64,000 nt of DNA from NCBI GenBank assembly GCA_965153355.1, contig OZ231126.1, positions 3,844,001-3,908,000 on the forward strand, in the 5' to 3' direction. Numbering within the stretch: position 1 is the stretch's first letter; each line of letters opens with the position of its first letter. Positions 226 through 64,000 of the stretch are shown piece by piece. The stretch comes from Flaccisagitta enflata. Lineage: Eukaryota. The notes beneath the pieces were generated by a model. It saw only the letters and a list, made by a program, of their open reading frames with translations, did not search any database and was not told the origin of the DNA. A program made the position numbers and the translations under genes.

Positions 226-1090
226 TTGCAATCATTAACAATTGTCTGTTTTTGTATTTGTTCATTAAGTGTTAACAACTGTCTGGAAACCTATATGTAT
301 TTAAGCGAAAACAAACTTGATAGTATGTGGTCCGTTTTATCTGTTGGTCTGTTTGTCCGGAGGCCCTAGGTGTTCTACAGGTTGATTCGCTGAGGCAGTT
401 GAATTTTAGACAAGCAGCATATGAGAAAGAAAAATTTTTTTAGCCCATGCTACTGCCACCCTCATGTAATCGAGGATATGACAACCTGACCTCCACGTGG
501 TGGGGCTCGTGCGAAGAAACGGAGTTTGAAAGAAGAACTTCATTTCTTTTACAAAGAGAGCACCGCTAACACATATTCGCTTCATAACAAAATTGAATTA
601 ACGCAGAACTAACTTTTTCATCCTAAAAATTTTTCTTAAAATCATTTTTCTTTTAAAAACAATTTTTTCTTGGATCACCAATTTTGGGCAATCTAATAGC
701 AACTGTGCATAAAAAAAAATCAAAAGCAGAAAAAACCAAAAAAAAAAAAAAAAAAAACAAACCACTGGGCAAAAAACCACTCTCATTTACAACTTTTTTC
801 CAGTCGGCGAGAGCCGCCTTTATTGGTAGATATAATGATTTGACGCTAAAACGTTATTTTCCAAAAAACTTATCACTTAACCTTATATTTTTTGCCTTTA
901 AGTACTTCTTTTAGCTCAAGTGATATGTTAGTTCAATCCTTTAGATGCGTCCATCTCTATAAGAGGCTTTGTCCGTCCGCTACACGGTTATTGCTGATTG
1001 CTATCTGTCACGCTGCTTGAAAACAATCGTAAAATGTTCGCAAAGTCGATTTCATCATTTTAGGTTCTGTTATAGGGCTGATGCAATGTT

Positions 1091-3523
<2,433 letters not shown>

Positions 3524-3584
<61 letters not shown>
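3524..3584. repeat. (GA)n microsatellite
   Basis: Perfect dinucleotide tract. Confidence 0.98.
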
Positions 3585-3586
<2 letters not shown>

Positions 3587-3742
3587 TTTGTCTGTCTGAG
3601 CTTATCAGTTTTAGTAAGAATGTCATTAACGAGCAAAGCCGCATGTGGACGCATCGTTGTACCCCCGGGTACTTGTTCACTAATGCGTTGTAACTCTTCA
3701 CTTGGAATAAAGAAGTGGTCAATACTTTTCAGAAAAAGGTAA

Positions 3743-4581
3743 GTGACCCAATTTACCCCACCTAGATGGGGTAAAATGGGTCACCTACTCGTTTTTAAAA
3801 AGGGGTGGGTTGCAACATTTTTTTCAGACAAACAGAGAATTTATGTTGTGTGCCAAAAATTGGCCCGTGAAAAATATATGTAGTCATCATGTGAAAAAAA
3901 AACAACAGAGCAACCGTCGCACGCTCCATCTTACCTTTACAAGATTGTGCATGACAACAATTACACATCATCACATAAAACATGGTTGAATACAGTTACA
4001 CCAAGAGTACTTTCATAACTGTTCCATTTTATTTTTATATTCGTGAATGAAACGTTTGCTCATGGAAAAAACAACTGATCAGACGAATAGACATAACCCC
4101 TTACGGAGATGCATATGGTCATGGAAGGGCAGAACCTTGTAGTATACTGTTACAGCCCACTTTGAAATGCCTTATCTCATAGCGTGACGTCATGAAGTAG
4201 TAGCATTATATGACGTCAAAGCGTGGCGTAACTATGTGGCGTCATGGCGTGGCGTAACGGCGTGGCGTGGCTACGGACTGTTGGTCAGCAAGTGTTGGCG
4301 GGTGTTGTTCAGCCTCCGTGGAAACTTGGCCATGAGACCCAAGTTTCCACGCCACGTATGTACGTCACGAAACGATTTCCGTATTTGCGGGCTGTTTATC
4401 GAGAGCAAGACTACCAGGGGTTGCCCCCCTCGCGCATTTCTTGGAGGCAATTTTCTTTTTTGTGGTAGTAGAGAAAACACACATTGTCCATAATCAATCA
4501 TAAGATTCTTCATTTTAATAAAAACTTAAAAGATGTTAAGAAAAAAATCGAAAAAGTGACCCATTTTACCCCACTTCACCC
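3743..4581. mobile_element. DNA-transposon remnant with repeated GTGACCCATTTTACCCCA motifs
   Basis: Near-perfect palindrome of the motif at 3743-3784 and another copy at 4556-4573 ending ..cttcacccta. Confidence 0.45.
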
Positions 4582-5340
4582 TAAATTTCTTTTGTTTGTG
4601 ATTGTTCTGCCTAGTTTTGTTTCCACTTGTTTTCATTTGTTTTTTATCAATTTCCATGTACGTAAGACAGCATCCCCCCAAAGGCAACATTTGTGTTTCA
4701 AAGAGGGTCAAAATGGAAATTTTGAATTAATGGAAATAGAAAAACAAGTGAAAAAAAAATGATTCAAATAGCTCAGACATAATATTTAAAAGAAAAATTT
4801 GCATTTATTTAGCAAGAAGGATCAAGTTTAGCCAATGTTACTAAAATAAATTTATTGAAAATTTCTACTTTTTTCATTTTTGGTCACTGATTACCGACAT
4901 GGCTGGTCTAAATTCTAAATCTATTAAAAATGAAAATATTAAAAAACAAAGAACATAGTTCTCTTCTCAAATCGATTACAGAGAGAACTATGTCTTTCAA
5001 ATGCAAAATTTCCCTGTGTATGGCTTTCTTAGAATTTAGACCACAGAGAATGAAAAAAAATGTAAGCAGAAATTTGCTAACAACCATCATTTTCATGCTG
5101 GTTTCCATGTGAATTGCATAGTTCTAATTACTTTTTAGGTCAGAATATGATAAAAAGGTATACACCAGGTGTCTTTAGAGACAAAATATCTATTAAAAGC
5201 ATTCCAGCTTCATTATCGTCCTGATAATGATGCAAAAAGTATGGTGAAACACTTAATTTTCCTTCAAAAATTCGCTGTCGTAATGTTTTCCACTTGCAAT
5301 TTTGAGGCACAATCTTAATATTTCTGTTGTTACAATGGAT

Positions 5341-5495
5341 AAGGCCGGATACACGGCAGGACAGTCGCGGACTGTTGGGCAGGAGCAGTAATGCAAAAAC
5401 CGCTCGCAATTCAGAAATGTGATGGACGGATGGACCAACGGATGGGCGGACCAACCGACACGGCAAGGTGTAGAGTCGTGTGTCCGAGACTGAAA
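5341..5495 (+). mobile_element. Helentron-associated/DINE-1-like short element (family AACAAGGCCGGATACACG...AGTCGCGTGCACGCGACTAAAA)
   Basis: Family 5' motif, internal GACG/GACC microsatellite and degenerate 3' palindrome. Many related copies in the window. Confidence 0.7.
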
Positions 5496-5611
5496 ACAAT
5501 CCAGTCCTGGTGACATCCAACAAAATATAAAGAAAATTCAATTTTGATCTAGAGAGTGCCTCTGTTTTGAGTTTCTATGGGATTGGTTTATGATTTTTCA
5601 ACCTACACCGT

Positions 5612-6548
5612 CTTTAAATCAAAATGGCAAATAGTAAACCTTTGTAGCTCCGTCATTATTAGTCCAAAAGCCTTGAAATTTTTAGTGACTATTGGTAACA
5701 ACTGACGTTTTTGCTATGCCAAAACTCAGAATTTGATACTGAATAGTTTGGGGTCAGTAAAACAAACATGGAATATGCCCAATTTTTAGGGCTGAATCTT
5801 TTTTCCTTGTCTTGTTAAAGAAGACTTGTCTTCATCAATATACAGATGTCAAAAAAATTGAGCTAGAACTCTGGGGTTGGTCTCAAATGATAGGAAATTT
5901 TTCAGAGATTACACATATACCAAAATTTTTTCAAAAAGTTGGAAATATTTTTAGGTTATCATCTGTTTTTGACAATCATTGCTAAAATCCAGACTGTCAA
6001 TCATTTGAAAATCATTCAAATCTTCAAAAATACAAAAAAATAATGAAACTTTTAAGCAGAACTTAAATTCATGAGTTGTAACTCTTCATTTAAGACCAAC
6101 CCCAGGGTTCGAGCTTGCTTAATCAGTAAAAAAAAAATAAATAAAAAGAGATTCTTCTATGTTTATCTGGGACATATTGATTTTTAGTCACATGCTACGC
6201 GACTCTACACCCCGCATAGTCGTTCCGTCGGTCCGTCCGTCACACTTTACTTTTTTGGCGTTAATGGGGGTTTTGGCCTTATTGCTCCTGCCCAAATGTT
6301 CAACTGACCTCAATTATGGCCCCTGCCCACCCGCACGCGACTGGGGTAGCCGTGTATCTGGCCTTGTTTTCCAAAAAGTTGATAACTTTTCAATGCTTTA
6401 ATGACCCCAAACTATTCAATATCAAAATCTGAGTTTTGGCATGACAAAATGATCAGCTGTTAGTAACATTCACTGAAAATTTGAAGACTTTTGGGCTAGT
6501 AGTTTTGGAGCTACAAAGGTTTACTATTTGCCATTTGGATTTAAAGAT
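5612..6548. mobile_element. Foldback/MITE-like element with long diverged inverted repeats
   Basis: 5612-5760 (aaatggcaaatagtaaacctttgtagctcc...) is the reverse complement of 6400-6548. A short element is inserted at 6181-6367. Confidence 0.7.
6181..6367 (-). mobile_element. Helentron/DINE-1-like short element
   Basis: tttttagtcacatgctacgcgactctac...cgtgtatctggccttgtt is a reverse copy of the family. Confidence 0.75.
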
Positions 6549-12400: not shown

Positions 12401-12542
<142 letters not shown>

Positions 12543-14095: not shown

Positions 14096-16567
14096 TTACA
14101 AAAAATTCATAGAGTCGGATTCCTCCTCGTCGGTCGCCGCGCCTTTGTCGTCGTCGCCGTCGCCTTTCGATTGTTGATGTTGTTGAGGACGTGGTGGCGG
14201 AGTTTCCTCCTCTTCCTCCTCTTCTTCGTCGTCGTCGTCGTCATCCAAATCGATTTCGTCTGGATTCTTCTCTCGTTCTTTCCTTTCGGCTTCTTTCTTC
14301 TTTTCCTCTTCGCGAAGCCGTTTCGCTTCCGCTTCCGCTTCTTCTGGACGCGGCGCTGCGGACGCGATCGCCGGCGCCATCGCTGTCGCTTCCGCCTTTG
14401 CCATCGCTGTCGCCTCCGTCTTCGTTTCGACCGTCGCCGTCGCCATTCCCAGTTCCTTTTGCAGCTGCGGCAACTCCTTGGAAACAATCTCGGTGGGCAA
14501 GTAACTGCCGAGTTGTTGTTGCTGTTGCTGTTTGGCCGCGTTTCCTCCTCTCTTTTCGTACTGCTCGAATTGTCGCATCATCTTCATGAGTTTCTTTTTC
14601 ATCTCGGTTTTGTTGTAGTAAGTCGGATGCGGCGGAGGCGGCATTCCCGCGTTCTTCCACTCGGCGTACGCCTGCTTGTTGTTGGCCATCAACTCGCGGA
14701 TGACTTTGGGCCAACGACGTTCCTGCTGTTGTTGTTGTTGTTCCTCCCATTTTTTACCGCCCGTCCTGCGTTGTTGCTGCTGCGGATCTTGCTCCGCCGC
14801 TGCGGTGGCTGCTGTACCTGCGGAATTATTGTGAATACCACCTTCCCCACCACTAACAATATTATTACCATCACCACCGACGACGACGACGGAACCTGAA
14901 TCATTATTGGAATAACCGGCAGAAGAAGTCGACAAATTATTTTGAACACTAGCATGATCGGCGTTATTGTAAACAGTAGTACGATATTGGTTATCATTGA
15001 GTTTATTATCCGCTTGATACGCGTTGTATGGAACTTCTCCTTGCGGTGGTGGTCCTCCTCCGAGCTTGGAGGCGATGAAAGCCCTGACGGCGTCTTTGGC
15101 GCTTTGGACGTTGGATTGTGTCGTCGTCGACGCTTCTTCGGATGTTATTCTTCCGACGGCGGCGGCGTTGTTGGCGTTGTTCTCTTGTCCTTCCCACGCG
15201 GCTTCGCTTCTGCCGGCTTTGTAGTAAGAATAGCGTCCGTGATCGGCTTCTTCTCCAACAGTTGGCGCCGGTGGCAGTTCCATACTCAGTCTCTGCGCCA
15301 AACGCTTCGCCGTCGGAGGAATCGAAGTCGTTTCCGCCGATCCCGATTTCGAGGAGGCCATGTCGGCGTTTCCGGTGGCGGTCGCCGTCGGATACGCCGG
15401 CTGTTGTGGAGGCTGACCGGCGCCGGCCGATGACGCGGTGGCGCCCGTGGCTGGAGTAGGGGGGAAATTGGGAGGGGGACGGGAAGGGTCGAAGGGGAGA
15501 GGGGGCATGGGGGGCATGGAAGGCATGGTGGGCATCGGCGGGGCGCCGGATGATGATGATGAACCGGCGGCGGCACCGGCGGGCGTCGGACCCAAACCGA
15601 CGTTGCCACCGGCGGTTTGAGTGAGATGCTTGGTGATGATGCCGTCACCAATCTTGAGAAAGTCGGCGAAGGAAACAACGCGATGACCGTCGAACACTTT
15701 CATCGTCTTGTGGGCGTCGGTGCACGTCTGCGTGGTTAAGAGGGATGAGAGAGAGGAAGAGATGAAAGAATGGTATATAACAATGGTACATAACGGTTAT
15801 GGTAGATATCTATAGAAATCTCATTCTTAAAAGGAAATTTAGCATACAAGCCACGGATATGCAGCCACATAAGGATAGAGGCTTATTACAATTATATACT
15901 GAAAAGTCCTTCTCAACGAAGCCTCGTTTTATTGTAAACATTTTATCTAGATTCAGGCGATAAACGAACAATCAGCCGCGTAGTACGATTGCAGTCGGAA
16001 CATCTGGCAACGACCACTTAGGTCAATGAATATAAGATACTAACCTGACAGAGGAAGGTTTTGCAGTCGGAGCATCTGGCAACGGCGACTCCCGACTCTT
16101 TGCAGGAAGTGCAGACGATGATGGAATTGACGGCCGCCAACAACTTGGGATCCAGATTCCCGCCGCCCGTGGAAGAGGCGGACGCGGCGGCGGAGGCGGA
16201 AGCGGTCGTCGACGGCGAGGCTGCAGTCGCCGCTTCCTCGATGGCAGAAGATTTGTAGACTTCGCCGCGAGGAGGAAGATCTTCAACGCCGACTGAGGGG
16301 AAAGCAAAAAGAGAGAGATGAGAGGAGGAATTGATCGAAAGAGACTTGTGTGCGTGTGCGTGTGTGTGTGTTGAGAATTGAGAAAGGAACGAAACAAAGA
16401 AAAGAAGGGTAGCAAGAAAAAAAGAATAAATGCGAAAGAAAGAAGGTGAGAGAAAGAAGGAGGGTGAGAGAGAGAAAGAAGGTGAGAGAAAGAGAGAAGA
16501 TGAGAGAAAGAAAGGTGAGAGAAAGAAAGGTAAGAGAAAAAAAGGTGAGAGAAAGAATTAAGGTTAG

Positions 16568-24629: not shown

Positions 24630-25858
24630 GCCGCTGCTACGACGAGTCGGACTCGGATTCTCTTCACCTTTCTGTTGTTGTTGTTTTTGTTCCTGTTCTT
24701 CAGAGGCGAGTCGTTTTCGCTTCAACTTTTCGCTCAAATCCCGAACTCTCTTCTTCTTCCTCTCCAACCGTTCCTCATCTTCATCGTCTTCATATCCCTC
24801 TCTATCCTCTTCCTCTTCTTCTCGATGTCTTCCACCCGATTTGCTCGTCGACGACGAGGACGACGACGGTCCTCCTCAGCAGGCGCATCCGACGCCGAAG
24901 ACGAGGCCGTCGAAGTCTTGTGGACTTTGCGGGGTTCTTGTCCGTGCGTCGACGCGCTGACGGTGATGCTGTCCACTTTCCGCGAAGAAATGGACACTTT
25001 GCGCACTTCCTCTCCATTTCCACCACTTCCTGCGGAAACAACAACGGCCGGCGCGGTGACGGTGGCGGCGGCGGCGGCGGAAGAAGAGGAGTTAATCGTC
25101 AACGAGGACGGTCCTTTGCTCTCTTTGACGTACTCTCCGTCTTCTTCGGACTCGGACATTTCTCTGCTGCTTCCTAATGGAGAAGCGGATGACAGAACTT
25201 TGGCCACGGCGTCTTTTAGACTGTCTTTGAGGTTGCGCAAGTCGACGGGTTTGCCGTGGACGTCGACCACGTCTTTGGAAGGGACGTTGGAGGAGGAGGA
25301 AGACGAAGCGGAAGCTGCGGTAGTCGTCGAGACTGTCGCCGCTTCTCCATGATGGGCCTTGAGCTTCTGTCGTAGATCGCCCGGTTCCAAGGCCTTGGTC
25401 GATTCTTTATCCCTTCCTCCTCCTCCTCCGCCTTTGCCATCGCCGATTCTGTCCATGACGGCGCCGACGCGTTTCAACGGATGATCGACGCCGCGATCGT
25501 TGGCGCCGCTGTTGCGACTTCCGCTGGCGCCACTTCCACCTCCCATCACCTCCAAGTCGTTGAGATTGATGTCTCGACCATCTTCGCCGCCAAACGGATC
25601 GTCGCCGTCGACGTCATTTTCCGGATTGTCGCGATCCAAATAATTGTACTTTTTGCCACCGCCGGCGTTTCCTCCTCCTCCTCCTTTGCCGCCGCCGGAA
25701 GACGACGCCGGAAATTTATCGGCGTAGACGGATTTGTCTTCGCCGCTGCCGGAACTCCATCGGCCGCCGAAGTAACCGCCACCGCCGTTACGGCTTTTAC
25801 CACCACCTCCTCCTCCTCCTCCTCCACCACCGAGGCTGTGACGATTGCGATGACTCAT
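14096..25858 (-). CDS. 10-exon gene for a ~1776-aa low-complexity RS/KE/Pro-rich protein with one type-1 B-box zinc finger
   Basis: Phase-consistent GT-AG exons: 25858-23959 (needs +1 nt near 24877), 23394-23114, 22874-22807, 22502-22269, 21314-21147, 18764-18550, 18121-17877, 17534-17196, 16292-16045, 15727-14096. The B-box [40 protein letters not shown] spans exons 9 and 10. Confidence 0.85.
16440..17150. repeat. Intronic (GAAA/GA)n purine tract
   Basis: Directly visible; lies in intron 8 of the B-box gene. Confidence 0.95.
17600..17870. repeat. Degenerate (CA)n tract
   Basis: Directly visible; lies in intron 7. Confidence 0.9.
19752..20434. mobile_element. Tc1/mariner-type MITE with long TIRs and TA TSD
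   Basis: ta|cagattcggacggaa...ttccgtccgaatctg|ta. The arms are reverse-complementary over more than 200 bp. Confidence 0.9.
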
Positions 25859-27660
25859 TTTCGCATTGACGTCGTCGTCGTCGTCGTCGTCCCACGAAAC
25901 GGAGGACGGAAAAACACCTTCGTTGTCGTCGTCTTCTTCGTTCGCCCTTCGCTACGAAAACGCGGGAGATGATGTCACTCAAGTCGGCTCATCTCGAGAT
26001 ACACACGAGACCCGTCACGCCGTCACGCAAAAAGATAAAATGTCCCAAAGTCGGTGTGGCCCAGATGCACAGCTCGACAGGTGCAATACACACGAGACGA
26101 GAGAGATGCGGAAATCACCGAGTCAATGACACACACACACACACAATAACACACAGAAATTGAAACGCCACGGCAAGAAGAAGAAGAACGTGTACGCGGG
26201 GAAATCTTCCACAAACGAGATATCAAAACCACGGAGCGCGTAATGTGTGTTGAGACGCGATGGCAAAAACTTGGCCAAATTAACAGAAAACATGGACGTT
26301 ATAGCGCGAGAGATTGAATTGAAACTGAGTTTGAAGCGAAAAAATGCCCCCGCCCCTAACTATCTCTTGCAAAGGAAAAAGATTTCGTTTTGTATATATA
26401 TGAACTACTCTAACTTTCTCTTTAGGTCGGTAATGCTTTTGCTGTGTGGTTGTTGGTTGTATATCGAACGGAAACCGCGAAAGTCACCTTTTTTGACGGT
26501 AAGATTTTAAGTATGCTTTTGAGTCTTGTTAAATGAGTCTTTTTTATAAATGATAAGGTTTCTCGAGATTTGTTACAGTGTTTCAAACCCGTTGCTGTTG
26601 GTTGTTGATGGTTATGCAACGGCTGAGGAAACTAAATTCAGCCACCTGTGATGGAGAAAGAGATGATCATGATAACAAATTCACTGACAGGTAACTAAAA
26701 AGCTTACACGTGATTAAAACACGACGGAATCGATTGTAAATTGCGATTAAATATGGTTAGGTAATGGAAAGATGAGAGAGATAGTTTACGTGGCTTCTCC
26801 GATTAAGTGAAGCGCGAATTTGAGAATGGCGTTTAGAGAAAAAGAAGATCATAAACTTAAACCTGTAAGTTTACTGACACATAACCAAAACGCTTGCACG
26901 TGATTAAAACACGACGGAATTGATTGCAAACATGGTTAGTTAATGGAAAGATGGGTTTAAAGTCAATTGTCACGTAATAGAGATAGTTTACGCGGCTTCT
27001 CGGATTACATAAAGCGCGAATTAGATTTGATTTTGGTTATGGTGTTTCATGACCTCGGCGATATCAAAAACAGAAAGCAAAGTGTAAACGTTCGCGTTGC
27101 TATATAGCGAGAACAAAGGAAAAACGCCCGTATACATATCGATGATCGGTCAAAGAAAAGGCGTTTGTTTTCGTTACTAGTCCCTTTTTTTCCACACCGG
27201 CCCAATCGTGAGAGAGCAGAAAAGACACGCTTTCACCCCAAAGCGGAACAAAGGAAGGGAATAAGGGGAGAGAGAAAGAGAGAGAGACGGGAAAGCGATA
27301 CAAGGTGAGTACGATTATGGCCGAAGGGAGAGAGAGAGAGAGACAACGCGGGACAATGAGGAGGAAGTGGAGGTGGAAAGGAGGAAGACCGAGACGAGGA
27401 GGAAAAGGAGGAAGAGGAGGAGAGAACATCAAAAGAAGCGGAGGAGGACGTGGAGGAAGACGGATGGAGAGAGGCGAGCACGAGGGGAGGATGAAGTTGT
27501 TCGAATGGGGCTCCCTCTAAATCCTCGATTGTCTCTACGTAGCATCTGAGGGCAAAACAAATGACGAATGTAAAATGGTTGAGAAACTTAGTTGAGGCAA
27601 TTGCAGATGCTGAGAGGGAAAGATAAGGATATGAAAAGGTGTAAGAACTAAGATTAGCCG

Positions 27661-35870: not shown

Positions 35871-36172
<302 letters not shown>

Positions 36173-39083: not shown

Positions 39084-42000
39084 CACAGTGGGCCTTAACT
39101 GGGTATGAGTTTAAAAAAATCCTCAATGGTAGTGACTTGTATGAGTAGGTACAATTTATAGTGGAGAATTGATGTTAACCCTTAAGAAAAAATTTCCCTT
39201 GAAAATTTTTGCAATAATTGTTAAAAAGTATCAATTTTTGTATGTATTTACATATAGATCTCAAGGATACATCAGTTTCAAAATTCTGACTCAAGATTCT
39301 CATTCCTGGTGAAATTTCCAATCGTTTGATAGGTCACACTATATACTTTTATGAAAAAATAAGATTTTTATTTTTTATGCCACAGTTACAAAGATAGCAA
39401 CGGTGGCTTAAAATATGAAAATCTTATTTTTTTGTAAAAGTATTTAGTGTGACCTATCAAATGATTGGAAATTTCACCAGGAATGTGAATCTTGAGTCAG
39501 AATTTTGAAACTGATATATCCCTGAGATCTATTTGTAAATATATACAAAAATTGATAACTTTATCGACTTCTCTGTTGAGGATCCATGTGAAAGTGACCA
39601 CTTCGCTACTGTGACAAGAATAAGATTGAAAGGTTCTTCTAAAAGAATAAGAAAAGAGGTAATTGACTGGCAAAAATTCAAAGAAATTCAACGTCATGAC
39701 GAAGAAATAAACAATTTGAATAAAAAACTGACTGATTTGCAAAAAGAAATAAATTTCATTCATGTAAGTGACGCCTGCGCCAAAATAGACTATGTGGTGG
39801 AAGAAGTGACGATGTTGATTCAAAGATATAAACAATCAGCGACAAAAACAACAAACAAAATTGTCAATAAAAATTTTAGACTTGCTAAAGACACGAGACA
39901 ATTGATAAAAGAGAGAAGAAACCTTTCGACAAAAATAAAGATAAATAAAGATGTTATTGACGTGACAACGCTAAAATCAGAGTTCAACAACCTTACACGT
40001 GAAATGAAAAAATTTATAAAAAGTGACAAAAGAATCCACTTTGAAAATAAAAGTGAGCAAATAAAAACGACAAAAGACGGAGGAAGGAAATGGCGCTTGT
40101 TCAACGAATTGATGGAAAATAATAGAAAAGACAATCAAGCGACAACCCATTTAAAAAGACCAGATGGTAGTGTTACAACAACAACAAAAGAAATAGTTGA
40201 CGAGCATGCACGACGCCTAGCGGCAACGCATCGACCGCCGACTCCAAACCCAGAAGATGCTGCTGCATACGCGGACTTAGAATTGTTCGTCAACGAAAAT
40301 TCGATGCTGCTGAAGCCACAACGACCCACTGCTGAAATAGGAGACGATCTAATTGATAGCGTCTTCAACTACGACCAAGTTGTGGACGCCATTTCCGGTT
40401 TAAAGACACGCACTGCCCCGGGAGAAGACCAAGTCTGCAACGCATCATTACGTAATCTCCAGAAGCGACAAGTAGAGACATTGACGAGCATCTTCAGGAT
40501 CTGCTACATCATTGGGTACTTTCCGCGCTCATGGAAGAGGGCGCGGATACGGATGCTTCCCAAGCCAGGCAAGTGTGCAACTTTATCAGCAAATTATAGA
40601 CCAATATCTCTGCTTCCTAATATGAGTAAATTGTTCGAAAAGCTGATAAAAAAGACACTTGACCTAGCTGACAGACAATTCGACATCATACCGGAAATCC
40701 ATTCTGGCTTCCGAGTCTCTCGCTCTACTCAGGAAAACTTTGTTCGATTTGGAGAAACGATTGCAGCAAACCGGAAGAGGAAGAAGGTCACGATCGCATT
40801 CCTCATGGATGTGGAAAAGGCCTTTGACGTCCTCGACTACAACATCCTTAAGAAGAGGCTCGTCGACGCACCATACGCCCCTAAGACGAAACTCATTGTG
40901 TCATCTTTCATCACAGACCGCACGCTTTATGTCTACGATGGCGACACGATCTCAGAAACTGTGGAAATGTCCGCCGGCGCCCCTCAAGGCGCCATTCTCA
41001 GCCCATCGTTGTATACGATTTGCGCCCACGATGTCCCAATTATCAACGATGAGGATGAAGGAGGCGCGCAGTATGCAGATGACTATCCTATGGGCAACAG
41101 GAAGAAACGCGAGGGAAGCGGTGGCCCATATTGAAAGACGACTCAAAGTAATGGAAAGGTGGTGCGGAAAGTGGAACATTAAACCGGCGACGGCTAAATG
41201 CGAACTAATCATCTTCAGCAACTCAAAAAGAGAAGTAAGACATCAGAGAAAAACTATCGTAACCACAGAAATGAGGCTAAATTCAGCTAAAAATGTAAGA
41301 CTGAAAAAGCGAGATGATTAGCAGAAGAATGTGGCTTAAAACTCATGAACTCGGACTTGAATTAGAAATAAGAGGTTAAATATCTCGGCGTGACTTATGA
41401 TAAAAAGAACAATTGGGAATCGCATATAAAACTGGTAATTAACAAATGCTATCCAAAAGTGTTATCTATCTGTAGATTGAACCGAAAAATGAATTATAAT
41501 AACAGAAAAGATATCTTACATATATTTGAATCACTTATTCTGTCATGCTTTTACTACTCGTCCATGGCTTATCTGAACATGAATGAAAAGAATTGGGCAC
41601 TGATTGAAAACTTTCTCATCAAATCTATTAAAATGATTTTTGACCTGCCATTACAAATGAATGGAGAGAGAGCACGTGAAATTTTCTATCCATGTACTTT
41701 CCGAGAAAAAATAGAGATTCACGCATTGAAGAGAATTGCGGCAATGTCAAACAGTACAACGATTATGCAACATCAAATCTTTAACTGTAGAGATTACGCA
41801 TTTACTGGTTCACGCGATACTATTTTTGAAAGAGCTATGAAAATAAGTGGCATCAATGAAACTATTAATTGTTACTTGTGCACGATGAACTGTGAACATG
41901 ATTGCGTGAAACCTTTTCAAATTGTCACGAAGAAAGTCTTTTGTCCTTTCTCTTACTCCAACTCCCCCTCCTTCCCCTCCCCTTCCTCCCTCCCCCTTTC

Positions 42001-43961: not shown

Positions 43962-45880
<1,919 letters not shown>

Positions 45881-55547: not shown

Positions 55548-56194
<647 letters not shown>

Positions 56195-56409: not shown

Positions 56410-57183
56410 ATGTATCTATGTTTGTTTGAGCATGGAAATACAAGAAAAGAATATGTTAATTTCAGCAAACCATCAAAAGATAAAAAAGGGGATGAGTGGG
56501 ATTTGGAAATTGATGGCAGGCAAATTCTTGAAGTGGACAGTGGCAAGTTCCTGGGGGTGTATATTGATAAACAGATCTCCTGGCGGGTGCATATTGGTAA
56601 GATCGTAACTGTTGGTATAATTGGAAGAGCCAGGAGGTTTATGGGTGGGCATCAATTGTTTCTTTTGTATAACACAATGGTCCTCCCCCACCTTCAATAC
56701 TGTTTGATTAATTGGGGTAATTTTAGGGGGGATAGAAACATAGGGTTAAGGGATCGGTTATTGTCCCTTCAGAAATGTTTGGTTAGAATAATCTGTGGTG
56801 CAAGTCACATCTCCCATGCTGACCCTTTGTTTGCCCGGTTGAATACACTCAAGGTGGACGACCAATTCACCCAGAGTGTTAGGATTTTTTCGTATAAAAT
56901 GTCCAGGGGTTTGCTACCAGGGGGAATGACTGCCTTTTTAGATAAAGTAGATCATGGTCACTTGACCAGAGGGGCAAAAAATAACTTTTTTGTTAGTCAT
57001 TCAGATCGTAGGTCAATTAGGAGTGTTGCCCCTCAGGTAAGGAATTCTCTGCAAATAGGAATAAAACAGTCTCCTAGCATTGCCTCTTTCAAGGACAGGT
57101 CCAAGTTGGACCTTTTGGCCCCTTATGGGCATTTCTCGTGCTCCGCTCTTGGCTGCCGCTCTTGCGCTGGCTTGCCCGGGTGA
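56410..57183 (+). mobile_element. 3' fragment of a CR1/L2-group LINE ORF2 (RT thumb and C-terminal region)
   Basis: KFLGVYIDKQISWRVHI, LYNTMVLPHLQYCLINWG, LQKCLVRII, HADPLFARLNTLKV. A TTTGCC-rich 3' region follows. Confidence 0.88.
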
Positions 57184-57664
57184 CTTTTTGTTTGGTTTTG
57201 CCTTTTGGGCCCTTTGGCCTACGGCTTTTGGCCTTTGCCTTTTTGCCTTTTGGTTTTTTGCCTTTTGGCCGGTTGCCGTTTGGTTTTTTGACTTTGGGCC
57301 TTTTGCCTTTGGGCCTCTGGCCCTTGCCTTGTGGGTTTTTGCCTTCTGGCCTTTCGCCTCTGGCTTTTTTGCTTTCTGCCTTCTGGCCTTTGTGGGGATA
57401 TGTATGAGCGTGCAGTGGCTCTTTTGCTTGCCTTTTTCTTCCCTCTCTTCTTTCTTTTCTTCTCCATTGGTATCTTGGCTTTTTTTTTTTTTTTTTTTTT
57501 TGTACATATGTTGGGCCTCCTCTGCGGTCTTGTTTTCTCCTGGTTCTTCTGGATCCTGGTTGCCCTTTTTGGGCCTGTATAAATGTTGGGCATCTATGCC
57601 TTTCCTTGGTTTCCTGTTTTCGTGTTCCATATTTTTTGTCTTTTTCCCTCGTTTTCATTCTGCT

Positions 57665-58202
57665 TATAGAAACGCGACAAACAGACAAACAAACCCAAAA
57701 CTGGGCAGGGCATCGGGCAATGGCAGGAATACTCACGTCGTCTCTGAGGATACGGCTCTCTCCAAGATCTGCCACTGGGCAGGGACGTCCTCTACAACCC
57801 AAATGGCGATGAAGCGGGAAGGTCACCCACAAACAAACCTCCCCAAGCAAAAGCTGTAATGTCCGTAGACTTATCACTTACAGAGGCAGTTTCATATCTC
57901 TCTTTGGGCCTCTTTGGGCAAAATATCTCCACTAGAGTCTGGGCTGGAAAAATGGCACAAAAATCAGGATGATAGCATGAGGTCTTTATTGTAGCAGGGC
58001 AGCAGCAAGACCGAATATGAGAATGGACAATGTTCAAAGGTAGGGGATTGTAAGGGGGCAAATGTTGGGGAAGAGGAAGAGGACCCGTGGCGCCACCTGT
58101 AGGGACAAAAGGGAATCGATAAGAGGGCGCCAGTGTAGATCGGGCAAAAGAGCAAAAAAACATGATGGCGGATATGGGCTTTCAGTCTGTACGGGTTCAA
58201 CA
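57665..58202 (-). repeat. 3' LTR (TG...TA termini on minus)
   Basis: Identical by eye to 62809-63346; AATAAA on minus at ~57990-57985. Confidence 0.95.
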
Positions 58203-58216
58203 CCCCTCCCCCTCCC
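58203..58216 (-). other. Polypurine tract
   Basis: GGGAGGGGGAGGGG abuts the 3' LTR. Confidence 0.9.
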
Positions 58217-60983
58217 ACGAGATCGAGGTCCTCCGAGGATCGAACTAGAAAGATTAGAAACGTAACGTTTGATTCGATTTTGTATAGTTAAGCAGTCATC
58301 AAATGTCCCCCACGAATCGCCGGCGACGCGTTGGTAGGAGTCCGGAAACAGTAACGACCGCCGCAGACGACTGATGGACATGATCTAATTTTTATACTGA
58401 CTGACATACCGACTTTCATTTAGATGGATGGCGTTGAATGTATGAATATGTGTGATTTAGCTCGGACTTAAATAGGCAAGCATACAATTCTTTCACTTAT
58501 GCAAGTGAAACTTAATCAGATTATCCTCTGATGCAGAATGACTTGATCTTCCTTAGCTTAGAAGCTCAAAAACACAAACTTATGGCGGTACTGTTGGGCG
58601 CGTCTCAAAACCGGATGAGCCTGGAATGATTGAAGCTCTTTAAACTACAAAACTTAGATTTCAAATCTTTCTTGCGTGAGCATGACTAAGAAACAGACCG
58701 TCTAAACAGCCTGCCACGCGGGACTTTTTAATGCACCTTATCACTGAAATGAATGCCTTTTCATGTGAAATATCGATGTAAAGAGGAGTGACGCCAAGGA
58801 CGGCGCGCCAAAACATTCGTCGTCGTGTAAGTTAGTCATTGTAGATCATTCACCCATCGAATATAAAGAGAAGATGGTCGGCCGAAGAAGAAGATTCGTC
58901 GATATTTCGCTGTCTGATGGAGCAACCCACACATTCATTCCATTTTCAGTTTAAACAAGCTCTGTCGCTTTAGTACAACCACGCAATTCTATGAAATCTA
59001 AAAAGATACTTTTTCATCCCATGACGTTTCCAACCCCGAAGCGGGAGCTCAGTAAAAACGTCATACAATGAATCAAATTAAAACTTATTCCTTAATCCCG
59101 ACAACAAACGGCAACGATGAAAGGGCCAACAATCGCGTTTGTTTTTAGCGCCTGCTTTCCATCACTTCATGATTATTGTCTTTACACAGAGATCTGAGCC
59201 GCGTCAATGTCAATTCTTTTTATCCTCATCAACTTCCCATTTCATTCATTTTTGTATGTATCATTGTATCAATGCCCGATAAAGATCGAAGCCTATTCTT
59301 GACTAAAGCTTACAGAGTGAATGCATGGATGGGGCAGTCGGGCCATTGTTCGTCGACCTCAGATTTTTCTTCTGTTTGCACAGTTTCTGTGACCTGCGGC
59401 CTACGAGCTAAACGGACTGCCAGTGGGTGCTGTAGTGCATTGAGAGGTGGATTCAAGAAAAAGTAAAACTTGCCGGCAATTATCTCGTCAGTCAGCCAAA
59501 TCACAATGCGCATGTCTGAAGGTCAGAGGTTCGAAACTGATTTCGGCTCGTCTTTTAATCACTGTTTTCGTCAGACACCATTGAATATTAGAGATAACTT
59601 ACTTAAATCGTTGCCTTTCACTGGGGTTGAAATTGTCTCACCCATCGAGTCTCTACTGAGACAAATCTGTCGTCACCAGACTGCCAGATAGATTCGACGT
59701 AGTCGGCGTTGAGAAAGAAGCGTCTTGCCGAATCGCGACGACCGGTGGATGAAGAATTTTTGCGTTAACGTCCACGATGAGGAGGACGAAGCGGCGCCGC
59801 TGACGGCGCCGTGAAAGAAGCGGCGTCGTTGGGAAGAAACGATGCTCCAATTCCCGTTCCCCTTTACGACAGAGGAGGGATGAAGAAGTCCCGAAAGTTC
59901 CGACCGTTTTCGCGCTGGCGCCCGAGACGAAGAGAAGTTCGAAGTTGCACCACTGACGGCGCCATAAAGAAAGCGGCGAAATCCAACTTGCCGTGGGAAC
60001 GATAATAACAAATCCCTGAGACCCTTTGGGGTAGTGATAGGGTCAAGGCTGTGGCATCAAATCACGTGAGGCTATTAATTCTGTGATATAGCCCTATTTG
60101 GAAGGAATCTCAGAAATCAACATTCGATCGCTTTAACTTTCCGATGCCCAAATACATTGATCTGCCTCAGTCTCAGGCCTGAATCTCAGAATCTGGTGGT
60201 TCTCACATTTGGCTTAACCACGGCGGGCACATCCGATGAACCGGACGGTAGGAGGGCGTAAAAATCACTGGGATTTCCAACCGCCGCTTCCAAGCCCTCC
60301 GATACATGGCACCACACACCGGGCATCTGTACTTGACCAACTTATTCTTGACTTCACAATCGTTCAATTGAAAACAACAGGTCTCAAACAGAATTGAGTT
60401 CTCATGAAATTGATTACTTAACTGAAATTGCCACTTTTGCCTCCCCTTTCCACGACAAGATGCGTCTTCGTATCTTCGAAGTCGTTGCCTCCAAGGAATG
60501 GAGATGAATAGAACTGTTGTCGTCGTCGTCCTCGGCGCCTTTGCTGAATTCATTTCTTATGTTGATGCCGTTCGAATGTCCTTTCTTTTTCCATTTGACT
60601 TTTTTTTCATTCTCTTTTAAGAACACTGTATTGTGACTTCGCGTCGATTAAATGCGCGAGCAACACCAAAAACCCGTACATGACATTTCGGCACTAATGC
60701 CGACTGAACAGAATGGCTTCTTCGCCTGATAAAATCTGGATTTACTCTGGAGTAATGCTTGATCTGTACAAAATTTATCTCAAAACCGTTGCTAATATGC
60801 CAAATGAGCTAGTCGCTATGTCTCTTACCTATGCAACACCTCCGAAGTAGTTGACCAGAACAATGGGATCCCCTAAGATATATGATACATAAATTTTGAT
60901 AATTTTTTTTTTCTCTGTAAAATGTCACGTCGACGTGTATATACACAGGTTGTATTTACAGATGATAAACGAAAATGATCGTC

Positions 60984-61057
<74 letters not shown>

Positions 61058-61073
61058 GCACGGCTTAAAGTTT

Positions 61074-62033
61074 CTAGTGACGTCGCAACGCTGCGGCGTA
61101 GGCGAGTGGATAAGCTTCCGACGTATTTGGCGGTGAAGTAACAGATTCGTTTCCTTCTGCGGTGGCGACGATAAGCGACTCGAGACGTTGGAATCCGATT
61201 CTCATGTCGTTTTCCAGTTGAGTTATTTTATTGTCAATGAGAGCGTGACCGACTTGCAGTTCCTCGATATCACGCCGATTTCTTTCAATCTCTGGGTCGA
61301 CGCTTGGTGGAAGATATTTTATCAATGCAGTTGAGGAAGCTGCTGCGAGTGTCGTCGGTTCAGAGAAAGGAGACACGGACGCAATTTCTAGTCCTTTTTC
61401 TTCAAACTCCGTTGACTCATAATCAACCGCGAAATTGAAAGCTTCGTCGATATTTAGTTTATCACGTTTGCAGAGGCGTCGTAACTTCCGTTGTAGTTTG
61501 GCGTCTTCGATGCCGCAGATGAAGCGATTAACGAGCTGACGCTGGTATTCGGCGTCGACGGTTTTTAGTTCGGGCTGATAGAGGTTGACGCGTCGGACGA
61601 GTTCGTTTTTGAAAGCGACCATGGTAAGATCTCCCTTTTTGAAACTTTCAGGATTTGAAAGAAAAAGTTGCTTTTCCTCCTCGTTGATGTAAAGCTTCGT
61701 CAATACGTCGTTAAGATCTGTCCAGTCGTTCTTGATGTCATCGTCGAGATTGAGATAGGCTGTCAGCGTTGCACCTGACTCAAGCTTACTCCCAATTAAA
61801 GAACAACACGCGTCGTCGAGTTGGGCAGCGTCATCGTCTCCCTGTTTAAGGCCATGAGCGGCCCTGACATTTTCCCTAAAGTAGACGCTGAATGAACTCC
61901 AGTCTTGTCCGATGGAAAATGACTTACAATTTATTGCTCTGACTGTCGGTGCTGAAGGCGCCGTCTGCGCCGTCTGTTCGTTGTTTGTCAAGACTGTCAG
62001 TCGGGCTAAGATATTGGCCAAACTTTCACTCAT
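61074..62033 (-). CDS. gag: Gag-like capsid protein, 319 aa
   Basis: Uninterrupted ORF in the gag position with Gypsy capsid-like motifs FSIGQDWSSF..YF, RFICGIEDAKLQRKL and IDEAFNFAVDYE, plus a C-terminal coiled-coil-like segment. Confidence 0.85.
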   Translation of the reverse strand: MSESLANILARLTVLTNNEQTAQTAPSAPTVRAINCKSFSIGQDWSSFSVYFRENVRAAHGLKQGDDDAAQLDDACCSLIGSKLESGATLTAYLNLDDDIKNDWTDLNDVLTKLYINEEEKQLFLSNPESFKKGDLTMVAFKNELVRRVNLYQPELKTVDAEYQRQLVNRFICGIEDAKLQRKLRRLCKRDKLNIDEAFNFAVDYESTEFEEKGLEIASVSPFSEPTTLAAASSTALIKYLPPSVDPEIERNRRDIEELQVGHALIDNKITQLENDMRIGFQRLESLIVATAEGNESVTSPPNTSEAYPLAYAAALRRH

Positions 62034-62789
62034 ATTGATTGTCGGAGAATTTTGATAAAATAAAATATATATTAGGCAATCCCAAGCTCCCCAGATGTCA
62101 GAAAATATTCAAAGCGTGAAGGGCGGTAAGAGATCGGTTAAAGCTGATGCAACTCGCTATAGGCAGTAAGAACAATGAGATAAAATGGCGAATATACACT
62201 GTAATGTACAGTTATACAATGTCAAATTGACTTGAAACGAGAGGCTGATGCCAACGGAATAATGAATGTTTGATGATGATGGGTAAGAAGAGATGAAGAT
62301 TGGCGATAAAAGCGGATGATATTCACAGATGAATAAATGAAACGTCTTGCTGTTCTGAGCCCAGGTGGAGAAAAAAAACTTATTGCTTTTGCTGAAATAA
62401 CCTTGGAGATGACGCCTTTTCTTCCTTAAGTTAGATCTGAGTTCTGACTTAACTTAAAAACTGAAATCAAACGATCGGTCAAAGTTACTTTTCCATGCTG
62501 AGTCTACGTCTCGGTGGGCGGCACCGGACACCTTGCGCGTCTTTCTTCCTAGCGATGAAGCACGCCCCTATGTATCATAATCTTTGAGCGGGTTTTGGTG
62601 TTGCTCCCCGAGCTTAGCCCCGACGGAAACTCCTTTGCTCAACAAATGTTGGCCCCACGACTACGGCTGCTCTCAACATGAAACTGAAACTTGTCAGGTC
62701 GATAAATTAATGTAGATTAACTGTGAGAAGGTATCCTTTGAAACGGCTGCGGGCTTAATGGCTCGGGTACGCGCGATAGTGTAACTATT

Positions 62790-62807
62790 CCCGGGCATGA
62801 GGCACCA
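62790..62807 (-). other. Primer-binding site
   Basis: TGGTGCCTCATGCCCGGG lies one base from the 5' LTR and begins with TGG, complementary to tRNA CCA. The tRNA was not identified. Confidence 0.85.
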
Positions 62808-62808
62808 G

Positions 62809-63346
62809 TATAGAAACGCGACAAACAGACAAACAAACCCAAAACTGGGCAGGGCATCGGGCAATGGCAGGAATACTCACGTCGTCTCTGAGGATACGGC
62901 TCTCTCCAAGATCTGCCACTGGGCAGGGACGTCCTCTACAACCCAAATGGCGATGAAGCGGGAAGGTCACCCACAAACAAACCTCCCCAAGCAAAAGCTG
63001 TAATGTCCGTAGACTTATCACTTACAGAGGCAGTTTCATATCTCTCTTTGGGCCTCTTTGGGCAAAATATCTCCACTAGAGTCTGGGCTGGAAAAATGGC
63101 ACAAAAATCAGGATGATAGCATGAGGTCTTTATTGTAGCAGGGCAGCAGCAAGACCGAATATGAGAATGGACAATGTTCAAAGGTAGGGGATTGTAAGGG
63201 GGCAAATGTTGGGGAAGAGGAAGAGGACCCGTGGCGCCACCTGTAGGGACAAAAGGGAATCGATAAGAGGGCGCCAGTGTAGATCGGGCAAAAGAGCAAA
63301 AAAACATGATGGCGGATATGGGCTTTCAGTCTGTACGGGTTCAACA
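62809..63346 (-). repeat. 5' LTR
   Basis: Identical by eye to 57665-58202 and followed by the TGCT TSD. Confidence 0.95.
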
Positions 63347-63366
63347 TGCTGTCTATCTAATTACCG

Positions 63367-63443
<77 letters not shown>

Positions 63444-64000
63444 CTATTGGATACATTAAATCGTTATTGGATAGCGTCGTTTTGGATGTATATGCAGCGG
63501 ATATGGGCCTGTATAGTTGGATGGATTATCGTGGATTATATGGATGGATTATATGGATGGATTATTATGAATGGATTTTGGCTATCGTGATATTAAGGAA
63601 CAGTGGTTCGACATGGCTGATGAACATTATGGAAAGAAGGTTGACGACATCGCTGTCAAAGACTGTTAATATTTTGGTGTTTTGACATTGTATTATTGAT
63701 GATTTTTATTTCTATGTTATTGAAAGTGTTGTTCTACATAGGAGTTGGCTCGCTGTTCCCAATACTTATATGTCTTTTTCTCCCTCTCTTGCAGAAAAAT
63801 GTTTAGGAGCATTGCTGCTCATCTGTGAGGGTGTTTTGGAGGATTCTAGCTAATTTAGCTCACATAGCTCAGTTGTTTTTTTTAATCTTAAATATGATAA
63901 ATGAATAAATATTTCGATACATGTTTAAACAAGCAGATACAAAAATGCATATTAGTGAGCATAACTGCTTATCTGTAAGGGTGTTTTTAAGCATTCTAGC

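Follow-up and report, generated by a model that had tools for sequence, protein, structure and literature searches.

Non-autonomous elements which keep a gag gene and lack pol are known from animals. The available part of the account of BHIKHARI-1 and BHIKHARI-2 (crestin) of zebrafish and ENS-1 (ERNI) of chicken describes all of them as non-autonomous long terminal repeat (LTR) elements encoding Gag (PMC12067270). According to the same text BHIKHARI-1 has a single Gag open reading frame (ORF), and strains differ in their insertions with an intact Gag; ENS-1, a non-autonomous relative derived as a variant of ENS-3, encodes the Gag protein ERNI. Here we describe an element of this kind, 5,682 bp long, in a stretch of 64,000 nucleotides from Flaccisagitta enflata (assembly GCA_965153355.1, contig OZ231126.1, positions 3,844,001 to 3,908,000 of the forward strand); this whole stretch is the window that was analysed, and all coordinates below refer to it. 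The observations support a structurally complete and very recently inserted LTR retrotransposon with a capsid-type Gag and with nothing recognisable as Pol. The reading we prefer, and consider likely, is the recent insertion of a non-autonomous LTR retrotransposon which has its own gag and no pol. The element shares with BHIKHARI and ENS-1 that they are LTR-flanked families of animals with a single Gag ORF and without pol or env; those families were recently active, with polymorphic insertions, and the element here is a fresh insertion (PMC12067270, as far as the available text goes).

In plants the corresponding class is TR-GAG (Chaparro et al., 2015). In the available part of that paper (PMC4350172) a TR-GAG is defined by LTRs, a primer-binding site (PBS) and a polypurine tract (PPT), by similarity to Gag only, by at least two copies and by a length of at most 4 kb; TR-GAGs are presumed to be mobilised in trans, and a search with hidden Markov models is reported to have found none in Drosophila. 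A preliminary description of the present element had called it TR-GAG-like and had regarded gag-only elements as mainly a matter of plants. The second statement was overstated, as BHIKHARI and ENS-1 are animal elements (PMC12067270, available part). The first holds for coding content, since the element has LTRs, a candidate PBS, a PPT, a target site duplication (TSD) and one Gag-only ORF and lacks protease, reverse transcriptase, RNase H and integrase; it does not hold for length, the element being 5,682 bp with a non-coding interior of 2.9 kb against the limit of 4 kb. The TSD is 4 bp here and 5 bp in TR-GAG. A length above 4 kb, a long non-coding interior between the LTRs and dependence on a partner are traits of the large retrotransposon derivatives (LARDs), which differ in having lost all coding regions, whereas the element here keeps an intact gag (these comparisons follow the definitions in the available part of PMC4350172).

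Structure and age of the element

The element occupies 57665-63346, as delimited by a repeat search and base-by-base comparison. It is assigned to the minus strand and read from right to left because its sole long ORF (61074-62033) lies on that strand. Its parts are:

57661-57664, no strand: TSD TGCT, left copy (direct reading)
57665-58202, minus strand: 3' LTR in element sense, 538 bp, with a putative AATAAA hexamer, recognised by its sequence, at 57985-57990 (LTR comparison)
58203-58216, minus strand: PPT GGGAGGGGGAGGGG, adjoining the 3' LTR (direct reading)
58217-61073, minus strand: non-coding 3' interior without Pol, Env or any Pfam family (Pfam and Rfam scans)
61074-62033, minus strand: gag ORF, 319 aa and stop (ORF list, relatives)
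61155-61295, minus strand: long C-terminal helix of Gag, residues 247-293, coiled-coil-like (secondary structure of the model, matches to coiled-coil structures)
61395-61940, minus strand: two-lobed capsid (CA)-like domain of Gag, residues ~32-213 (AlphaFold2 model, VIA-align)
62034-62789, minus strand: 5' leader of ~756 nt, no ORF with a family match (Pfam scan)
62790-62807, minus strand: PBS-like motif TGGTGCCTCATGCCCGGG (direct reading)
62809-63346, minus strand: 5' LTR in element sense, 538 bp (LTR comparison)
63347-63350, no strand: TSD TGCT, right copy, followed by a (CTGT)n(CT)n microsatellite (direct reading)

In element sense the order is a 5' LTR of 538 bp, PBS and leader of ~775 nt, gag of 960 nt, a further 2,871 nt and a 3' LTR of 538 bp. 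The two LTRs are direct repeats which agree at all 538 of their positions, their match does not extend past either boundary, and TGCT flanks the pair on both sides; paired LTRs with a TSD are the structure of an LTR retrotransposon. The LTRs read 5'-TGTTG...CTATA-3' in element sense and thus have TG...TA termini instead of the usual TG...CA; the TA end is a minority variant, and the LTR boundaries are fixed by the mutual identity of the two copies. The PBS-like motif of 18 nt starts one base past the 5' LTR with TGG, as is expected of a tRNA primer-binding site. It is a candidate PBS; tRNA genes number zero in the 64-kb window. The PPT of 14 nt abuts the 3' LTR. The gag ORF has 319 aa from its ATG and 344 aa from stop to stop, and the remaining stop-free stretches listed in the element's own sense are all of at most 129 aa. 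The identical 538-bp LTRs, the perfect TGCT TSD, the PBS, the PPT and the single clean 319-aa ORF of the preliminary description were all found again, the PBS as a candidate; that description had omitted the minus-strand orientation and the TA at one LTR end.

That the insertion is recent is inferred from the LTRs, which do not differ at any of their 538 bp. For a count of zero the 95% Poisson bound is about 3 differences, corresponding to K < ~0.006, and if 1e-8 to 1e-9 substitutions per site and year are assumed the insertion would be younger than roughly 0.3-3 million years. A recent insertion, as had been proposed, also agrees with the intactness of the ORF, with the TSD and with the cis signals. 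It could be argued that the element is old and inactive, and that the LTRs were made to look young by gene conversion or by an assembly artefact. LTR identity is indeed the sole dating evidence, and nothing specific speaks for such a history; against it stand an intact ORF and a perfect TSD, PBS and PPT, which conversion would not preserve, and we give this alternative hardly any credence.

No Pol could be found in the interior. The reverse transcriptase (RVT), RNase H, rve and aspartic protease families gave no match at E <= 1 in 64 stop-free segments of at least 35 aa from both strands of 58203-62808, and Pol families gave none at E <= 1 in the six frames of 58203-61073 translated with stops as X. 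The only Pfam matches there were low-complexity ones to the translated GA/TC microsatellite at 60987-61057, and Rfam gave no match at E <= 0.1 on 57400-63600. The protease, reverse transcriptase, RNase H and integrase of an autonomous element are therefore missing, and the absence of Pol families claimed in the preliminary description was confirmed by this six-frame Pfam search for all 2,871 bp downstream of gag, read-through included. The interior contains an imperfect direct repeat of 52 bp (59774-59825 and 59927-59978, 77% identity), besides which it has no match to the rest of the window, and the microsatellite of ~70 bp, which begins 17 nt past the gag stop.

The microsatellite is a plausible recombination scar, and the element might have arisen sporadically from an autonomous gag and pol element through internal deletion or rearrangement. 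In that case a deletion or a template switch, perhaps at the GA/TC tract, would have removed pol, and the product would have been copied once more or would be a dead end. A simple deletion derivative should however retain a Pol remnant or have a short 3' untranslated region, whereas here 2,871 bp lack such a signal in all frames. Identical LTRs and a clean TSD arise by reverse transcription and integration, and so the pol-less form itself must have gone through both. We infer from this, as the strongest argument available, that the pol-less form was mobilised in trans, and an origin as a sporadic deletion derivative seems unlikely.

The Gag protein and its relatives

The 319-aa ORF itself has no Pfam match at E <= 10, and the label Gag therefore needed separate evidence. 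BLASTP found 31 related proteins of 183-516 aa with 40-82% identity. An exhaustive search with a profile of the family found at least 220 representatives at E <= 1e-3, among them 144 at E <= 1e-10 and 69 at E <= 1e-30. When 32 representatives were scanned against Pfam, four reached the gathering cutoff of Retrotrans_gag (PF03732), which is 24.1 bits (P0058 with 31.1, P0081 with 33.7, P0034 with 25.5 and P0037 with 24.6 bits), and five more matched below it. By these comparisons the Gag of the element is joined to Retrotrans_gag by transitive homology only. Searching solved structures by sequence with the family profile gave just coiled-coil noise, at E >= 0.028. The nearest clusters in the ESM-Atlas were PNMA (0.91) and Retrotrans_gag (0.90), which we take as a lead only.

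The fold was predicted with AlphaFold2 from 23 aligned sequences (mean predicted local distance difference test score, pLDDT, 72.8). The model is all-helical over residues 45-220 and continues in one long helix, residues 247-293. It was compared by VIA-align with 48,161 solved chains, and among the best 50 matches the first 28, and 32 overall, are capsids of retroviruses or retrotransposons or proteins derived from Gag; the others are mostly coiled coils aligned to the long helix, such matches standing at ranks 33-50. The best match is the C-terminal domain (CTD) of rat Arc, with Z 10.4 and a root mean square deviation (rmsd) of 6.6 over 145 aligned residues, a Z which like the others has to be read with the warning of VIA-align that values below ~13 may reflect an arrangement common among helical proteins. 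The CA-like CTD of MOAP1 follows with Z 9.6 and rmsd 2.8 over 98 residues, and the Drosophila Copia capsid with Z 8.9 across model residues 32-213; further capsid matches are to murine leukaemia virus (MLV), Rous sarcoma virus (RSV), the human endogenous retrovirus HERV-K, dArc1, PNMA2, PEG10 and Ty1 Gag. The top 12 matches of Foldseek are likewise capsids and are weak, the best having E 0.045. Superposed on solved CA structures, the model at this pLDDT has the two-lobed, all-helical CA fold. A prediction of self-association for two copies of residues 32-296 scored 0.01.

Because low-Z helical matches can be unspecific we rely on the agreement of three lines, namely the relatives, the family members recognised by Pfam and the predicted fold, and on this basis the 319-aa ORF is a real Gag. 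The preliminary description was right to call it so, even with no Pfam match of its own. A zinc knuckle of the form CX2CX4HX4C is absent from the Gag of the element and from all 172 family proteins, and the architecture indicated by the model is a capsid followed by a coiled coil, without a classical nucleocapsid. With the Gag of Ty3/gypsy-type elements and with Arc, PNMA, PEG10 and MOAP1 it shares the two-lobed CA fold, and family members match PF03732; it differs from the Ty3/gypsy-type and domesticated proteins in having no CCHC knuckle and in falling below every Pfam threshold. The gag lies between LTRs that are bounded by a TSD, and so it cannot count as a domesticated gene. A capsid with a coiled coil and without a classical zinc knuckle is also the architecture of BHIKHARI Gag; this likeness is one of architecture only (PMC12067270, available part). 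BHIKHARI differs in that it derives from vertebrate lokiretroviruses and that its Gag, 617 aa long, has the coiled coil at the N-terminus and a tail rich in glycine (same part of that source), whereas the Gag here has 319 aa, a C-terminal helix and a family tied to Pfam Retrotrans_gag.

The relatives come in two sizes, a short form of ~320-400 aa and a long form of ~440-560 aa. The long forms (P0004-P0011, P0013, P0016-P0018, P0030 and P0032) carry a P/Q-rich tail which starts near a conserved LTGGPGY and ends with a motif of the type FWxEHLEYEPxPxGY...YSYYPxxFQ. The lineage of the element has no such tail, and tblastn with the 14 long-form relatives found no trace of one downstream of gag. 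The Gag of the element groups with P0001, P0002 and P0003, independent database proteins of 326-330 aa, which over the alignment are 84%, 75% and 59% identical to it; P0001 and P0002 share its C-terminus ...AYPL.YAA..RRH and P0003 ends differently. In a tree of 55 family members these three and the Gag of the element form a group (support 99 in the Shimodaira-Hasegawa-like approximate likelihood ratio test, SH-aLRT), and the long form P0004 is its sister (99). Elsewhere on this tree the short and long labels are mixed; they need 16 changes, which is not fewer than in shuffles, and many of the short entries may be truncated contigs. Because P0001-P0003 group with the Gag of the element and two of the three share its C-terminus, the alignments indicate that the intact, tail-less Gag is a property of a diverged lineage and not a lesion of one copy. 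This bears also on the deletion derivative considered above, from which a tail-less end recurring in the diverged P0001 and P0002 would not be expected.

It should be noted that a search for longer, fused Gag-Pol forms yielded a single protein, of 562 aa, and that the best 150 representatives are all of at most 550 aa. This is uninformative on partners, Gag and Pol often being separate ORFs. It is possible, though on the whole doubtful, that the Gag of the element and P0001-P0003 mark a long-lived, capsid-only LTR lineage in marine invertebrates which is without a Pol of its own.

Copies, proposed mobilisation and presumed partner

Two DNA runs from the same organism, X1 and X2, hold 0.60 and 0.30 of the sampled words, and the marine metagenome runs X3-X8 hold 0.06-0.17 of the words of the element. 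Contigs of 120-614 nt were aligned to the element at >=90% identity, the element being divided into 30 bins:

X1: 629 contigs, of which 193 at >=99%, 205 at 95-99% and 231 at 90-95%; 30 of 30 bins covered
X2: 801 contigs, of which 244 at >=99%, 268 at 95-99% and 289 at 90-95%; 30 of 30 bins covered
X3, marine metagenome: 132 contigs, of which 40 at >=99%, 40 at 95-99% and 52 at 90-95%; 25 of 30 bins covered

The bins covered in X1 and X2 include the non-coding interior, and the same variant can recur on different contigs, as many as 11 of them at one position of the interior (59080) and 8 in gag (61825, 61890). As gag and interior both exist in many diverged versions, they belong to a multi-copy, diverged repeat family of the same organism. 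The X3 contigs match the element at 90-100% identity, so that either its family or DNA of the host occurs in sea-water samples. Within the window there is no other copy of gag, all 147 tblastn matches falling on the ORF itself. The preliminary description had seen in the element an actively mobilised non-autonomous family which supplies its own capsid and borrows Pol in trans. That there is a family, multi-copy and diverged, is borne out by the 629 and 801 contigs in all bins, and the interpretation as a whole is supported in part.

The contigs also bear on the origin by deletion. Internal skips of 48-756 bp on single contigs mean that deletion variants do arise in the family, and depth changes sharply beside the microsatellite, being 305-509 at 60919-61125 and 193-371 at 61126-61332 as against 1733-6065 at 60712-60918. 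The join of gag to a pol-less interior is moreover seen in this copy alone, and no second full-length copy was seen, in runs whose contigs reach 614 nt at most. On the other side, many diverged variants of the interior exist, which speaks against a sporadic derivative. Depth is also low at 59470-60090, where it is 260-394 in X1 and 11-150 in X2 as against ~700-3300 in the neighbouring bins, and perhaps only a sub-group of the copies has this segment. Two stop-free frames of ~128 aa, which overlap each other, lie in the segment, as does the 52-bp repeat. The highest summed depth of the interior is in the leader, 62368-62781.

If the element is, as we prefer to think, a recent insertion of a non-autonomous retrotransposon with its own gag, its cycle may be pictured as follows. 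The element would be transcribed from the 5' LTR and the RNA translated into Gag, which would assemble particles and package the RNA of the element itself. Protease, reverse transcriptase with RNase H, and integrase would be provided in trans by an autonomous relative, whose Gag-Pol would co-assemble with the Gag of the element and whose integrase would accept these LTR ends. Reverse transcription primed by a tRNA at the PBS, with plus-strand priming from the PPT, would yield two identical LTRs, and integration would duplicate the 4 bp TGCT. No RNA run was listed among those sharing the sampled words, and the poly-A RNA run X9 gave no reads on the stretch among 12.2 million (~6% of the run), which does not amount to a test of transcription.

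Several points weigh against this reading. The 3' LTR ends in TA and not in the canonical CA, the ORF matches no Pfam family, and the Z values of its structural matches lie in the range covered by the warning of VIA-align. The contigs of 120-614 nt are too short to join gag with the interior in another copy, and their summed depth is no copy number and may include related families. This depth is also uneven: 59470-60090 and the 3' end of gag are thinly covered, 60712-60918 and the leader at 62368-62781 heavily. Sub-families could produce such a pattern, and so could a partner with the same leader, a chimeric interior or a rearranged copy. The six best-supported copy differences within gag, too few for a selection test, comprise three synonymous and three non-synonymous ones, which at that sample size gives no sign of constraint. 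A donor of Pol was not found, no whole-genome search having been made for one. A locus encoding a Gag relative was not found in JGI metagenome, IMG/VR viral and prokaryote contigs (589, 331 and 600 pattern matches respectively, none confirmed by tblastn), and the exact 28-nt pattern of the LTR/PBS junction has no match in metagenome contigs.

An intact ORF in a pol-less element, in a tail-less Gag lineage which persists at 59-84% identity, invites the hypothesis that Gag is kept for a role other than transposition. By interfering with the capsids of related autonomous elements Gag could control their copy number or restrict them; alternatively, a host process could make use of it, as has been suggested for BHIKHARI Gag. 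There is a precedent in the Gag of BHIKHARI-1 and -2, which is needed for zebrafish development (PMC12067270, available part), and the fold matches include, by its entry title, the CA-CTD of the endogenised Ty1 Gag restriction factor (9rxy, Z 7.8). Ordinary parasitic mobilisation is nevertheless the simpler explanation of a fresh insertion with a complete set of cis signals, and we hold it very improbable that such a role is the main reason for the intact gag. It would be compatible with a recent insertion of a non-autonomous element mobilised in trans and does not exclude it.

Genomic surroundings and significance

A 257-aa ORF at 56410-57183(+), which by eye resembles the C-terminal part of a reverse transcriptase of a long interspersed nuclear element (LINE), ends ~480 bp before the element, which accordingly lies in repeat-rich DNA. 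Directly upstream of the insertion site, at 57013-57660, the sequence is of low complexity; long open frames of the two strands overlap there, those of one strand being K/R/E-rich and those of the other F/L/A-rich. GA/TC microsatellites occur at 1093-1196, 3524-3584, 12404-12473, 35871-36046, 55601-55698, 60987-61057 and 63349-63440; the one at 60987-61057 is that inside the element just past gag, and the one at 63349-63440 immediately flanks its right end.

A reverse-transcriptase ORF is found at 39539-41131(+) (RVT_1, 2.5e-17). Of host genes the window has a beta-tubulin exon at 44879-45574(-) (Pfam Tubulin, 6e-47), which is 90-92% identical to animal beta-tubulins; the named tubulins in the database with at least 90% identity are all animal and the named non-animal ones have 55-88%. 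Taken with the marine metagenome runs this agrees with a host that is a marine animal, weakly so, tubulin being highly conserved, and it does not point to a vertebrate in particular. The frame loses similarity after ...CLRFPG, presumably at an intron. Two stop-free stretches, 14099-15796(-) of 566 aa and 24737-25951(-) of 405 aa, are of low complexity, rich in P/Q/G/S/D/E and without a Pfam family, and are probably large exons of disordered host proteins.

Elements of this kind are already known, and the element does not change the knowledge of how they work. What it adds is modest and consists of an unannotated Gag family with capsid and coiled coil and of a diverged tail-less lineage within it. 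No gag-only or TR-GAG case from an invertebrate surfaced in the literature searched, which did not cover Repbase entries and subscription journals; the TR-GAG papers listed there all concern plants, judging by their titles. The element is an unusually clean example, with identical LTRs, all cis signals and an intact ORF, and the Gag family of at least 220 representatives, mostly missed by current annotation, should be useful for annotating transposons in marine genomes.

Elements with gag and without pol bear on the question of which functions, such as packaging in a capsid of the element's own, have to be provided in cis and which may come from other elements. The domestication of Gag, as in Arc, PNMA and BHIKHARI, likewise has its raw material in such elements. 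The tail-less lineage leaves a BHIKHARI-like story possible in an invertebrate. If such a capsid-only lineage exists, a tail-less Gag kept intact down to 59% identity would mean either a persistent hyperparasite or a Gag on which the host or a partner depends, and the lineage would be an invertebrate counterpart of BHIKHARI, built on a Gag family which current domain libraries do not recognise.

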